From Candidatus Sericytochromatia bacterium (GTDB taxonomy: Bacteria > Cyanobacteriota > Sericytochromatia > S15B-MN24 > VGJW01), in contig JAYKHS010000032.1 of assembly GCA_035285865.1 (NCBI GenBank), forward strand, positions 1-18,167: a DNA stretch of 18,167 nucleotides, in the 5' to 3' direction. The notes beneath the pieces are model-generated. The model had not been told where the DNA came from, did not search any database, and saw nothing but the letters and a program-made list of their open reading frames with translations. Made by a program: the position numbers and the translations under genes. Positions 1 to 18,167 of the stretch are shown in pieces (positions within the stretch are counted from its first letter, which is position 1; the number at the start of each line of letters is the position of its first letter).

Positions 1-49
1 ACCATCGTGGCTGGTTCGCCGGATGATCATCGCGGCGAGGGGACCAAGG

Positions 50-169
50 GGCTCGAACCGGGTCATCCGGGGTGGTGCGTGGAACAACGACGCGTCGAAC
101 ACGCGGGCGGCGAACCGCAACAACAACGACCCGGACAACCGCAACAACAACATCGGCTTCCGCCTTGCC
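50..169 (+). mobile_element. Putative DGR template region (TR) corresponding to an FGE-sulfatase/CLec C-terminal variable region
   Basis: Translates as GSNRVIRGGAWNNDASNTRAANRNNNDPDNRNNNIGFRLA, matching the RV.RGG.W...R...R.........GFR end of FGE-type CLec domains. It has 12 Asn codons in ~40 codons, all AAC. The in-frame upstream sequence does not resemble the FGE domain and there is no stop right after GFR. Confidence 0.78.
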
Positions 170-345
170 AGCCCAGGGATCCCGGACCACAGGTTCCGCG
201 GGGTCAGACACCTCGGGGGCACGGCCTCGAGGTCCGCACCACGTCCCTGACCATCGTCCCCGAGCCGGTGTCCGGCCATTGCCGGAACGAAGACCCCAAG
301 AAACTTCCCGGCCATGCGGGCGATGGCCACGCCCCGGGAGGGGTG
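170..345 (+). ncRNA. Structured spacer 3' of the putative TR (candidate DGR RNA spacer)
   Basis: GGTCAG 202-207 pairs with CTGACC 247-252 and encloses hairpin CCTCGGGG/CCTCGAGG (211-232). Further stems: TCCGGC-catt-GCCGGA (271-286) and GGCCAT/ATGGCC (310-328). Confidence 0.4.
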
Positions 346-370
346 GGGGCTGACTTGCCATGTTTCACCC

Positions 371-399
371 TTGCGCACCCTGTCTTGCTCGGCCACGAT
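371..399 (+). promoter_or_regulatory. Sigma70-like promoter, probably leaderless, for the AAA-ATPase gene
   Basis: TTGCGC (371-376), 17 nt, CACGAT (394-399), 7 nt, ATG (407); no good Shine-Dalgarno (SD). Confidence 0.45.
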
Positions 400-406
400 G
401 GGGTCG

Positions 407-1954
407 ATGACCCGCCTCAAGTTGCCCATCGGCATCCAGACCTTCCGCAAGATGCGCGAGGAGGATCATTACTACGTCGACAAGACCGGAATGGCCTTGG
501 AGCTTGTTGCTTCGGGCAATTGCTTCTTTCTGTCCCGCCCGCGTCGATTCGGCAAGAGCCTCTTCGTCGACACGCTCAAGGAGCTCTTCGAGGGCAACCG
601 GGAGCTGTTCCGTGGCCTTTCTGCCGAGGACCGCTGGGATTGGTCCGTACGATATCCGGTCATCCGGATCAGCTTCGGCGGGGCGGCTCTCTGGACGCCC
701 GAGAAACTGGCGGGCGTGGTCGAGGATGAATTGCTGGCACTCGAGGCCCTGCTGCCCGGCTATCAGCCTCATGTCGAGCCAGACCGGCGGCTGCGTGCCC
801 TCATCAAGGCCTTGCACGCCCACACCGGCCAACGGGTCGTGGTGCTGGTGGACGAATATGACAAGCCGATCCTGGACAGCCTAGCCGATTCGGACTTGGC
901 CCGTCGGATGCGGGATCTCCTGCGCGACTTCTATGGCGTGCTCAAGGACCTCGATGCCCACCTGAAGTTCGTCTTCCTGACGGGCGTCAGCAAGTTCAGC
1001 AAGGTGAGTCTGTTCTCCGGCCTGAACCAACTGCGGGACATCACGCTGGATGCCCGCTGGTCAGCCTTGTGCGGCTACACCCAGACGAACCTCGAGACGA
1101 TCTTCGCCCCCGAACTCGACGGGGTGGATCTGGACGCGGTACGGCGTTGGTACAACGGCTACAACTGGGGCGGCGAGGCGGTCTACAACCCCTTCGACGT
1201 GATGCTTTATCTCGAGCATCGGGTCTTCAGGCCCTACTGGTTCGAGACGGGCACGCCTGCCTTCCTCGTCGACCTGCTGGCGCGCCAGGGCTTCTTCACC
1301 CCACGTCTGGAGCGCCTGCGTTCCAGCAGCGACTTCCTGTCGGCCTTCGATGTCGATCGCATCGAGCCCGAGGCCTTGCTCTGGCAAACGGGCTACCTCA
1401 CGCTGCACGGTACCGAGCACTTCGATGACGGAGAGCCCCTTTACATCCTGGGCTATCCGAATCGCGAGGTCGAACTGAGCCTGAACCGCAGCTTGCTGCT
1501 GGGGCTGGGGCCCACGTCCGACGCGGTCAAGGAGGTGCAGTTCGATCTGCCCAAGGCCTTTCGCAACGGCGATCTGGAATCGTGCCGTGCCATCCTGCAC
1601 CGGCTGTTCGCGAGCATCCCGAACGACTGGTTCCGCAATAACCCGATCGCGCAATACGAGGGCTACTACGCCAGCGTCTTCTACTGCCACCTTGCCGCGC
1701 TTGGCCTTGACTTGCGGGTCGAGGACGCGACGAACAAGGGGCGTATCGATCTGGTGCTCAAGGCCCCCGGACGCGTTTTCCTCTTCGAATTCAAGGTCGT
1801 CGAGACCATGCCCGATGGCAAGGCCTTGGAACAGCTCCGAGCCCGCGGATATGCCGACAAGTACCGCCAGCCAGACACGATGGTGACGCTGGTGGGCATC
1901 GCGTTCAGCAAGACCGAACGCAACGTCGTGGGCTTCGAGGTGGCCGAAGCCTGA
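407..1954 (+). CDS. AAA-ATPase-like protein with C-terminal PD-(D/E)XK nuclease domain (AAA-ATPase_like + PDDEXK_9 type), ~515 aa
   Basis: Family motifs LPIGIQTF and YYVDKT, Walker A SRPRRFGKS, Walker B VVVLVDEYDKP, LTGVSKF, WYNGY, YNPF, YWFETGTP, and C-terminal GRIDLV...FEFK. Start moved from 314 to ATG 407 by family N-terminus. Confidence 0.92.
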   Translation: MTRLKLPIGIQTFRKMREEDHYYVDKTGMALELVASGNCFFLSRPRRFGKSLFVDTLKELFEGNRELFRGLSAEDRWDWSVRYPVIRISFGGAALWTPEKLAGVVEDELLALEALLPGYQPHVEPDRRLRALIKALHAHTGQRVVVLVDEYDKPILDSLADSDLARRMRDLLRDFYGVLKDLDAHLKFVFLTGVSKFSKVSLFSGLNQLRDITLDARWSALCGYTQTNLETIFAPELDGVDLDAVRRWYNGYNWGGEAVYNPFDVMLYLEHRVFRPYWFETGTPAFLVDLLARQGFFTPRLERLRSSSDFLSAFDVDRIEPEALLWQTGYLTLHGTEHFDDGEPLYILGYPNREVELSLNRSLLLGLGPTSDAVKEVQFDLPKAFRNGDLESCRAILHRLFASIPNDWFRNNPIAQYEGYYASVFYCHLAALGLDLRVEDATNKGRIDLVLKAPGRVFLFEFKVVETMPDGKALEQLRARGYADKYRQPDTMVTLVGIAFSKTERNVVGFEVAEA

Positions 1955-16694: not shown

Positions 16695-17006
16695 TCAGTG
16701 CCGCGCCAGCCACGCCTCGAGGTCTTGGGGTCCGCTGAAGTCCAGCAGGTCCTCCGCGAGTTGTTCCAGCGCTTCGAGCGACAGAGCTTCCAACTTGGCC
16801 AATGCATCGGCTCCGGGCAGCGCTACGCGTCGACCGAGCAGTCGTGAGATGGTCTTGATCAACTGGGCCTTGCGACCGAGTTCCTCTCCCTCAGCCACGC
16901 CTTGGGCCACGCCTTGAGCCACGCCTTGAGCCATGCCCTCAGCCCTACCTTCGGCCTTCAGGCGCTCGACCAGTTCCTGATAGAACCGCGAATGCTCCAG
17001 ACTCAT
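16695..17006 (-). CDS. Predicted in-frame internal small protein (RpnS-like, 103 aa), copy 1
   Basis: GGAGG-tggcg-ATG inside the gene (SD at 17011-17016), located just before the repeat helix. Confidence 0.6.
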   Translation of the reverse strand: MSLEHSRFYQELVERLKAEGRAEGMAQGVAQGVAQGVAEGEELGRKAQLIKTISRLLGRRVALPGADALAKLEALSLEALEQLAEDLLDFSGPQDLEAWLARH

Positions 17007-17633
17007 CGCCACCTCCGCAAGCTCGAGAAACGACGGGAAGAGACAGCTCCGCAGGATTTGATAGTAGACGATGCGATCCGGCTCGGGCAACGATTGGACA
17101 TCAGCCAAGGCTTGTTCCAGCAAGGGCAGGTCTTCTCGTCCCCGGCAGTGCAGCAAGGCATGAAAAACCGAGGCATGCGGACGACCGGCAAGCTCCTCAA
17201 GCGACAGGCGCGGAAAGTCCTCGGTGCCCAGCACCAGGGGCACGATCTGACTGCCCCGGCTATTGAGGCGGATGGGCTGCCGGGCCCACGCCGCCACCCT
17301 GGGGTCCGGTGCGATGACCAGCAATTCCACCGCGCATGCCCATCGCTGATGCATGGCCACCACGTACTGTGGCCACGACCATTGCTTCTCAGGGTCCCTT
17401 GCAAGTTGGATCTCCACCACGACAACCAGCCGGGGCGCGGTCGCGTCCCCGAAGATCATGACCAGGTCTGCCCTGCGGTCCACCACGAGGGGTATCGAGG
17501 CGGCGGGATCCATCAGGTAGACCGGCAGCCCGGGGTCAAGGTCCAGCACGACCCGTGCAAGCGCCGGGGCGAGGTGCTCGGGCACGTGCCTCAGCAACTC
17601 GATCAAGACCTCATGCAGGGGACCTGGCGACAT
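16695..17633 (-). CDS. Rpn-like PD-(D/E)XK nuclease-domain protein with DUF4351-like C-terminus (copy 1, long form, 312 aa)
   Basis: N-terminal HE.LIELL; RADLV...VVVEIQL..D (D...ExQ variant); EG/QG 4-aa repeat helix; C-terminal LSLEALEQLAEDLLDFSGPQDLEAWL. Confidence 0.82.
   Translation of the reverse strand: MSPGPLHEVLIELLRHVPEHLAPALARVVLDLDPGLPVYLMDPAASIPLVVDRRADLVMIFGDATAPRLVVVVEIQLARDPEKQWSWPQYVVAMHQRWACAVELLVIAPDPRVAAWARQPIRLNSRGSQIVPLVLGTEDFPRLSLEELAGRPHASVFHALLHCRGREDLPLLEQALADVQSLPEPDRIVYYQILRSCLFPSFLELAEVAMSLEHSRFYQELVERLKAEGRAEGMAQGVAQGVAQGVAEGEELGRKAQLIKTISRLLGRRVALPGADALAKLEALSLEALEQLAEDLLDFSGPQDLEAWLARH
16888..16959 (-). repeat. 12-bp coding tandem repeat, 6 degenerate units (KAEG RAEG MAQG VAQG VAQG VAEG)
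   Basis: Plus-strand units of the type CCTTGAGCCACG. Confidence 0.9.
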
Positions 17634-17760
17634 GCCCCCACGCTAACGGAGGGGGCATGACGGTTCCATCAGGAGGGGCATCAGGACCGTCATGGTCGCC
17701 AGCTGGCGATGCCTCTTGCGACGGGTGATGCCAAACTGTTGAACAACAACCTTCGCGGAG

Positions 17761-18084
17761 TCAGTGCCTCGCCAGCCACGCCTCGAGGTCTTGGGGGCCG
17801 CTGAAGTCCAGCAGATCCTCCGCCAGTTGTTCCAGAGCATCGAGCGACAGAGCTTCCATCTTGGCCAAGGCATCGGCTCCGGGCAGGGCTACGCGTCGAC
17901 CGAGCAGTCGTGAGATGGTCTTGATCAGCTGGGCCTTGCGACCGAGCACCTCTCCCTCAGCCACGCCTTGAGCCACGCCTTGCGCTACGCCCTGAGCCAC
18001 GCCTTGAGCCATGCCCTCTGCCTTGCCCTCGGCCTTGAGGCGCTCGACCAGTTCCTGATAGAAGCGCGTGTGCTCCAGACTCAT
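17761..18084 (-). CDS. Predicted in-frame internal small protein (RpnS-like, 107 aa), copy 2
   Basis: GGAGG-tggcc-ATG (SD at 18089-18094), at the same position as in copy 1. Confidence 0.6.
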   Translation of the reverse strand: MSLEHTRFYQELVERLKAEGKAEGMAQGVAQGVAQGVAQGVAEGEVLGRKAQLIKTISRLLGRRVALPGADALAKMEALSLDALEQLAEDLLDFSGPQDLEAWLARH

Positions 18085-18167
18085 GGCCACCTCCGCAAGC
18101 TCGAGAAACGACGGGAAGAGACAGCTCCGCAGGATTTGATAGTAGCCGACCCGGTCCGGCTCGGGCA
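17761..18167 (-). CDS. Rpn-like/DUF4351 protein, copy 2 (5' end outside the window)
   Basis: Frame is open to the window edge (PEPDRVGYYQILRSCLFPSFLELAEVAM...) and is near-identical to the 3' part of copy 1. Confidence 0.85.
   Translation of the reverse strand, partial: PEPDRVGYYQILRSCLFPSFLELAEVAMSLEHTRFYQELVERLKAEGKAEGMAQGVAQGVAQGVAQGVAEGEVLGRKAQLIKTISRLLGRRVALPGADALAKMEALSLDALEQLAEDLLDFSGPQDLEAWLARH
17954..18037 (-). repeat. 12-bp coding tandem repeat, 7 degenerate units (one more VAQG than copy 1)
   Basis: KAEG KAEG MAQG VAQG VAQG VAQG VAEG. Confidence 0.9.

Follow-up and report, generated by a model that had tools for sequence, protein, structure and literature searches.

A likely template region of an HRDC-containing, Treponema-type DGR with remote targets in Sericytochromatia

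Positions 50-171 of the window, by which we mean the whole 18,167-nt stretch of DNA that was analysed, are very probably the template region (TR) of a chromosomal diversity-generating retroelement (DGR), with its HRDC, avd and reverse transcriptase (RT) genes likely directly upstream. Four or more lectin-fold proteins that are encoded at remote sites and predicted to be surface-exposed probably had their C-terminal tips rewritten by this DGR. The window is the complete contig C32 of the source genome (G000, a Candidatus Sericytochromatia bacterium; 2.82 Mb in 32 contigs, bin 82.67% complete). What can be seen directly is the adenine bias between the TR and its variable regions (VRs), the set of target genes, the gene order in relatives and an overlap with a contig that bears an RT. 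The element is an HRDC-containing, Treponema-type DGR (architecture C) with remote targets and a host among the Sericytochromatia. From what is established for other DGRs, an RNA that covers the TR together with its structured flanks would be copied by RT-Avd with random bases placed opposite adenines, and the cDNA would then replace the VR from the IMH end toward a variable 5' end; the mark of a target would be the IMH and, downstream of it, an element with a GC-rich inverted repeat at its end. The features at the left end of the window are as follows.

1..127, forward strand: overlap left by the assembler towards the missing upstream contig; the last 127 nt of L033 (G001:C10) and the first 127 nt of G001:C9 match it at 100%
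2..49, forward strand: 5' flank from the RT stop to the TR, from an alignment of four congeners
23..250, forward strand: 75-aa open frame with ATG at 23, judged incidental
50..171, forward strand: probable DGR TR with 31 adenines and 12 AAC codons; A-biased mismatches to four G000 VRs and to congener VRs
153..171, forward strand: IMH*-like GC-rich 3' end of the TR, common to the VRs; the last adenine changed in VRs is 152
172..397, forward strand: spacer on the 3' side in the likely TR RNA, with hairpins predicted around 178-205, 210-233, 271-286 and 304-343
398..1954, forward strand: AAA-ATPase-like / PD-(D/E)XK nuclease gene (PF09820 and PF08011), a neighbour and not a DGR component

The template region

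The translation of 50-169 in frame 2 of the forward strand is GSNRVIRGGAWNNDASNTRAANRNNNDPDNRNNNIGFRLA. The initial annotation, made from the letters of the window, held that this segment encodes the terminal FGE/CLec motif and that the upstream FGE sequence is absent, and a profile search with the FGE-sulfatase model PF03781 agrees, since the TR covers only positions 210-254 of 255 and there is no full-length in-frame FGE domain at this place. All 12 Asn codons are AAC (at 56, 83, 86, 98, 113, 119, 122, 125, 137, 143, 146 and 149) and form two NNN runs at 119-127 and 143-151, which a check codon by codon confirmed. It is also true for every TR codon, as had been claimed for AAC, that an A-to-N change never gives a stop, and about 5e17 protein variants are computed to be possible. 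The end of the segment had been set slightly too early, because the identity with the VRs continues to base 171. TR and VRs part ways at 172, where the VRs run into their own downstream element. The IMH label for 153-171 follows the literature (PMC5758913) by position and not by experiment.

The exclusive use of AAC is by itself a weak sign, because in seven genes of the window Asn is mostly written as AAC anyway (49 of 62 codons), and the weight for the identity of the TR rests on the AAC density and the match to variable regions. When all six frames are read, eight places in G000 have at least eight AAC per 40 codons, and only two places reach 12, namely the TR (12) and a tandem NNTSAL repeat on C24 (14). 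The seven other AAC-rich places were rejected as a second TR, being low-complexity or repeat proteins. Tandem NNTSAL or NNFTMPMG repeat proteins with a beta-rich N-terminal part, unrelated to the DGR, are encoded on C24 at about 15500 (forward strand), C15 at about 10400 (reverse) and C26 at about 73450 (reverse). No second copy of the TR was found in the window, or in the assembled G000 by sequence, profile and AAC-density searches, and no RT lies in the window, both in line with the earlier reading.

Targets and variable regions

PF03781 matches G000 ten times. One match is the TR, another an N-terminal fragment at an end of contig C15, and the remaining eight have the C-terminal region. The VRs of the source genome, compared with the TR, are these.

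C14:178900-179021: mismatches at 18 of 31 A and 5 of 91 other bases (p 2e-9)
C10:723-844: mismatches at 20 of 31 A and 7 of 91 other bases (p 8e-10); from base 57, 19 of 30 A and 4 of 85 others
C13:23053-23177: mismatches at 19 of 31 A and 8 of 91 other bases; a 3-nt insertion gives one extra codon (p 1e-8)
C7:90025-90146: mismatches at 15 of 31 A and 18 of 91 other bases; decayed

The earlier proposal of a TR that diversifies FGE-sulfatase-fold proteins is thus borne out by adenine-biased VRs in four G000 genes, and the genome-wide search for homologues that it had called for gave matches that close FGE-sulfatase genes at the 3' side and have most of their differences at TR adenines. In the targets the PF03781 domain ends at the VR, which is the position of a C-terminal CLec-fold VR. 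The adenine bias alone is not diagnostic, because the TR adenines fall at naturally variable residues; the control paralogues with this region (on C2, C16, C18 and at the start of C13) too show it against the TR (p 1e-2 to 2e-4), with 27-45 of 91 non-A bases different. As discriminators for VRs we used the identity at non-A bases, the kept C of AAC and the shared downstream element. The C of AAC is kept in 12, 12 and 11 of 12 codons in C14, C10 and C7, and in 6 of 12 in C16 and C18, the two paralogues checked.

The element downstream of the VRs consists of the last codons and the stop, a GGCC-GTA-GGCC motif, a pyrimidine-rich block and then, about 60-110 nt downstream, a GC-rich inverted repeat. 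A 90-nt element behind the C10 VR has exactly four matches in G000 at E <= 0.01, and these are the four VRs. It is absent from the four other FGE paralogues and present behind seven VRs of three congeners. The elements are predicted to form DNA hairpins and are degenerate in C7; the IMH/IMH* boundary with the GC-rich inverted repeat occurs behind VRs only.

The best solved-structure match of the C14 target, by sequence, is TvpA of Treponema (T. denticola, 2Y3C; E 5e-41), with FGE enzymes at 3e-21. Lipobox-like motifs were found with a regular expression in the C14 and C10 targets, the N-terminus of the C7 target is hydrophobic by eye, and the C13 target is cut by the contig end. The targets are predicted to be surface-exposed lectin-fold proteins, and from the sequences we infer their surface location and a binding function.

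Some observations concern the places where the targets lie. The C13 target is about 350 nt from a tRNA-Lys(TTT) gene (C13:22628-22700) while a 70-nt copy of this gene with 90% identity (C10:207-276) lies about 440 nt from the C10 target, with IS-like fragments on the other side, and the targets may travel on elements integrating at tRNA-Lys(TTT). The right end of the window overlaps the start of C14 by 108 nt inside a GVAQ repeat family; if this overlap is real, the C14 target would be about 197 kb from the TR. At window positions 16695-18167 there are two paralogues in tandem, which carry GVAQ repeats and resemble each other at the C-terminus.

Gene order in relatives

The DNA of the TR was matched in 8 of 61 genomes searched, G000 included. 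An RT gene that ends just upstream of the TR, with HRDC and avd before it, is present in G001, G002, G004 and G031 and two times in G003, and this order of HRDC-avd-RT-TR is found in three of three congeners, one member of the family and one of the class; the RT frame is open in all three congeners. G003 has two complete cassettes, on G003:C22 (L031:9524-9646) and G003:C37 (L034), whose templates we call a and b. The VR of G002 differs from its own TR at 18 of 32 A and at none of the 90 other bases.

Among the best 80 of 166 related RT loci, HRDC lies upstream in 74 and an AAC-rich segment within 600 nt downstream in 74, while avd, searched with two queries, was found in 38, mostly with the RTs closest to the query. 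At most three non-A mismatches occur in 63 of 69 TR-VR pairs of related loci, three pairs being cut by contig ends. A search for RTs through 47 genomes of the class gave close ones in G001-G004 and G031, a more distant one in G023 and weak matches only in six more. The nearest RT-bearing contigs are in records titled Ca. Sericytochromatia and Ca. Tanganyikabacteria, and outside the class the nearest RTs are those of Myxococcota, deltaproteobacteria and other phyla. The HRDC-(avd)-RT-TR cassette was also seen in records titled Myxococcota, Planctomycetota, Verrucomicrobiota, Acidobacteriota, Zoogloea and methanogenic or Thermoplasmata archaea.

The missing core and the assembly break

Searches of the G000 bin, 82.67% complete, with Pfam, NCBIfam, a motif scan and tblastn gave no RT, no avd and no DGR-type HRDC. 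An HRDC match on C11 was rejected as RecQ-like. The likely explanation for the missing RT and avd is that the contig breaks at base 1 of the window. Four other G000 contig pairs overlap by exactly 127 nt, and window positions 1-127 are thus an assembler overlap; no partner for the left end of the window was found among the G000 contig ends. The gene order on L033, the contig that ends with these 127 nt, is an FGE target, HRDC (PF00570), Avd (NF033474, 90 bits with a cut-off of 80), an RT with YMDD, and then window 1-127, so that base 1 of the window is the last base of the RT stop codon. The best solved-structure match of this RT is entry 8UB7 (E 6e-47), which we take to be the BPP-1 RT, with group II RTs at 4e-18. 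PF00570 is present on L033 and in the congeners and places the cassette of the genus in architecture C; a cassette HRDC was not seen in the G000 bin.

L033 was binned with G001, and its target is an orthologue of the target in a G003 cassette, at a site that is empty in G000. L033 is therefore probably G001's own copy and need not equal the DNA upstream of the window in G000. It is still likely, judged from the sequences, that HRDC, avd and RT lie directly upstream of the window, past the assembly break, and we infer an intact RT within G000 itself. The initial annotation had left it at targets and RT that were upstream, remote or lost; of these, remote is right for the targets, and for the RT an upstream place is most likely, not a loss. 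The search it suggested for an upstream RT and avd succeeded in the relatives and on the contig that ends in window 1-127, and failed in G000's own bin, and the upstream flank turned out to be an RT stop codon on the overlapping contig and not an intact FGE gene. An assembly break of this kind hides the DGR core from tools that require an RT beside the VR.

Template history and activity

The four G000 VRs have 5-18 mismatches at 91 non-A bases, which is more than is usual in related loci. Between bases 78 and 171 both C14 and C10 differ from the TR at a single non-A base, G128. This position is G in the TR and A in G002 and in both G003 templates, and the G is missing from the C13 VR too. Since G128 is absent there, the VRs of C14, C10 and C13 would have been last written from a template with A128. 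Present activity thus looks low, with three of four VRs apparently written from a template with A, not G, at 128; no VR of the genome itself fits the TR cleanly, and either the DGR is slow or the template was recently replaced.

The C14 VR is a mosaic: the three diagnostic sites on its 5' side are b-type and the four on its 3' side a-type, which fits a conversion that sets out from the IMH and stops at a 5' point that varies (PMC5758913). At 76-77 the C10 VR has the bases of G002 and G003, unlike this TR. In G003 three of four VRs, two of them remote, match template b (1, 1 and 2 non-A mismatches) and the fourth matches template a; the target inside cassette a fits the distant template b with 2 non-A mismatches, versus 11 against the adjacent template a. 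The sole VR that matches template a (G003:C12) belongs to a gene in two pieces with an internal TAG.

The C14 mosaic, the C10 bases at 76-77 and the two cassettes of G003, where template b accounts for most VRs including the one in cassette a, would all suit a genome in which a second cassette, missing from the assembly, is the main source for the four VRs, and in which this TR arrived recently or donates little. There is however no second TR in the assembled G000, and a single A-to-G change at TR 128 explains most of the 3' mismatches. We find this somewhat unlikely, and it is in any case compatible with the reading we prefer, that 50-171 is the TR of a chromosomal DGR with its core upstream.

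It is clearly less probable that the TR is a true one but an orphan, with RT and avd lost or broken in the species and the four VRs frozen. T. denticola isolates with targets but without the core are known (PMC4891356), and one could point to the failure to find RT or avd in G000, to the decay of the C7 VR and its downstream element, and to G128 being missing from three of four VRs though it is near the IMH end. But the start of the contig coincides exactly with a 127-nt assembly overlap, and the contig on its other side has an intact RT; the RT frame is open in all three congeners; and over 78-171 C14 and C10 show a single non-A difference from the TR.

We consider it very improbable that an FGE-sulfatase gene or pseudogene ends in 50-171, or that ORF 23-250 encodes a small Asn-rich protein: there is an open frame with its ATG at 23, a Pfam match to the FGE C-terminus and a stop at 248-250 that is kept in four congeners, but the upstream DNA on the overlapping contig is an RT gene, the tail of the ORF is without codon-position bias among the four congeners (13, 11 and 10 of 25 columns vary over the codon positions; 19 synonymous versus 67 non-synonymous codon differences), and start and stop are not conserved among 74 related TRs, an in-frame upstream ATG being present in 26 and absent in 48 and the stops falling anywhere. 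With a TR at 50-171 the 75-aa ORF is judged from its sequence to be incidental, as first proposed, its tail having no coding signature.

The TR of G001 (G001:C9:125-130, L036) is without one codon in the first AAC run (window 128-130), and its two assembled VRs keep four codons there; the VRs of G000:C13 and G003:C14 have one extra codon each. By these alignments, codon-sized slippage at AAC runs appears to hit both templates and targets in the genus.

Flanks of the template region and the neighbouring gene

Positions of about 34-52 are predicted to pair with 243-266, and these pairs are invariant and hence without support from covariation. A consensus fold of four related sequences, derived from these same sequences, has 9 pairs changed on both sides versus 4.1 +/- 1.4 in shuffles, and these include 4 of the 10 pairs in the hairpin 210-233, inside the ORF tail. 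The single-sequence fold of 1-410 is no better than shuffles (z = -0.46). The modelled folds suggest that the TR RNA is likely structured. Rfam gave one chance-level match only on 1-600 (E 0.83), a promoter scan of 1-2700 gave none, and there was no RNA run among the matches listed for sequencing runs holding the sequence.

The AAA-ATPase/nuclease gene follows the TR in four congeners but only 2 of the best 80 of 166 related RT loci have it, both of them congeners, and we rejected it as a DGR accessory. Each congener genome has 4-9 matches to AAA-ATPase/PD-(D/E)XK. Several of these genes (window 398-1954, G000:C7:86498-88123, G001:C63 and G003:C30) have an FGE/CLec gene no more than 2 kb away or sit at the S4/enolase site, and their orientation varies.

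Comparison with known systems

The closest likeness is to the DGR of Treponema denticola (TvpA), which is also chromosomal, has an HRDC accessory and several remote targets of the FGE-type CLec kind with a C-terminal VR, and predicted lipoproteins as targets (PMC5758913, PMC4891356). In T. denticola HRDC lies between TR and RT, unlike the target-HRDC-avd-RT-TR order here, which has avd too (PMC4891356). Remote lipoprotein targets, and a VR that fits another template type, were described by Nimkulrat et al. 2016 (PMC4891356), and in the isolate SP32 VRs fit another template type better than the local one, much like the situation in our genus (PMC4891356).

Wu et al. 2018 define the HRDC-containing architecture C and the avd-RT-TR order B2, and they report that about half of the HRDC DGRs have avd, with 11 arrangements among 14 (PMC5758913). 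Our element resembles B2 in having the TR downstream of the RT and avd upstream (PMC5758913), but has an HRDC gene before avd, which makes it architecture C. The same survey counts 45 DGRs with non-adjacent targets among 372, gives 23% for non-A mismatches and notes indels next to AAC (PMC5758913).

With the DGR of Bordetella phage BPP-1 (mtd-avd-TR-brt) it shares an AAC-rich TR, IMH/IMH*, Avd (as seen on L033) and a GC-rich inverted repeat behind the VR (PMC5758913, PMC8632793). Unlike BPP-1 it is not phage-borne, has the RT before the TR and remote targets, and between the IMH and its long inverted repeat there are about 60 nt with a conserved GGCC-GTA-GGCC and the pyrimidine-rich block. The DGRs of oxygenic cyanobacteria (Vallota-Eastman et al. 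2020) belong to the same phylum and also have CLec targets as dispersed remote paralogues (PMC7517822). Their targets are mostly cytosolic kinase/signalling fusions, and that paper has no mention of HRDC (PMC7517822), whereas the targets here have predicted signal peptides or lipobox-like motifs. Roux et al. 2021 report frequent DGR transfer and membrane-anchored cellular targets, with a method that misses remote targets (PMC8144416).

Possible exchange between co-occurring species

G001:C9 starts with window 1-127, is without codon 128-130, is identical to base 188 and then falls to about 80%. Bases 1-33 of the window are identical at 33 of 33 positions in G001, 25 in G003 and 15 in G002. The identity to G000 in the enolase region is 85% for G001 and 84% for G003, and the orthologous RT genes of G001 and G003 are 77% identical. 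The cassette lies before the S4/enolase genes in G000 and G002, and in G001 and G003 at a site that is empty in G000 (C4:34566-34583). The VR's end and about 210 nt downstream at the right end of G000:C13 are 89% identical to the end of G001:C67 (L029), above the usual 80-85%.

Both versions are present in sequencing run X1, which could be the source sample and is thus not independent: an exact window piece at depth 10.6 and a G001-like piece at depth 8.3, the latter with 84 differences and 14 gaps in 519 letters and equal to the G001 version under two of five scorings. Pieces of 131 and 140 nt in X1 cover exactly 49-171, and one of them has a 3-nt gap like the TR of G001. In four runs the contigs on 1-1200 belong mostly to other organisms at 80% likeness, and the base-change tables were left unused. 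Against sharing speaks the depth of X1 over 1-40, which is 11.3 and not about 19, and assemblers can merge near-identical stretches of co-assembled relatives, which could mimic an exchange. A recent exchange of window 1-127 between two co-occurring species is possible, but we would sooner expect it to be false.

We hypothesize, with similar caution, that the genus has a shared, exchangeable pool of templates, in which the RT end and the TR were recently swapped between species that are 80-85% identical elsewhere and have their cassettes at different chromosomal sites, in which templates act across cassettes, and in which the VR mosaics record the succession of templates. If this were true, target repertoires would be reprogrammable by replacing 120 bases.

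Conclusions

Our literature searches found no report of a DGR in Sericytochromatia, although the supplementary tables of the Wu and Roux surveys may list such elements, and there was no relevant paper on several templates acting on one target among the matches listed, which is a weak test. DGR transfer between genomes and remote targets have already been described, so that the gain is an example and not a new principle. HRDC-type DGRs with remote surface-protein targets are hereby extended to Sericytochromatia, the non-photosynthetic relatives of cyanobacteria. With six templates and a dozen VRs, the genus forms a natural series whose sequences let one follow targeting across cassettes, polar 3'-to-5' conversion and the replacement of templates.
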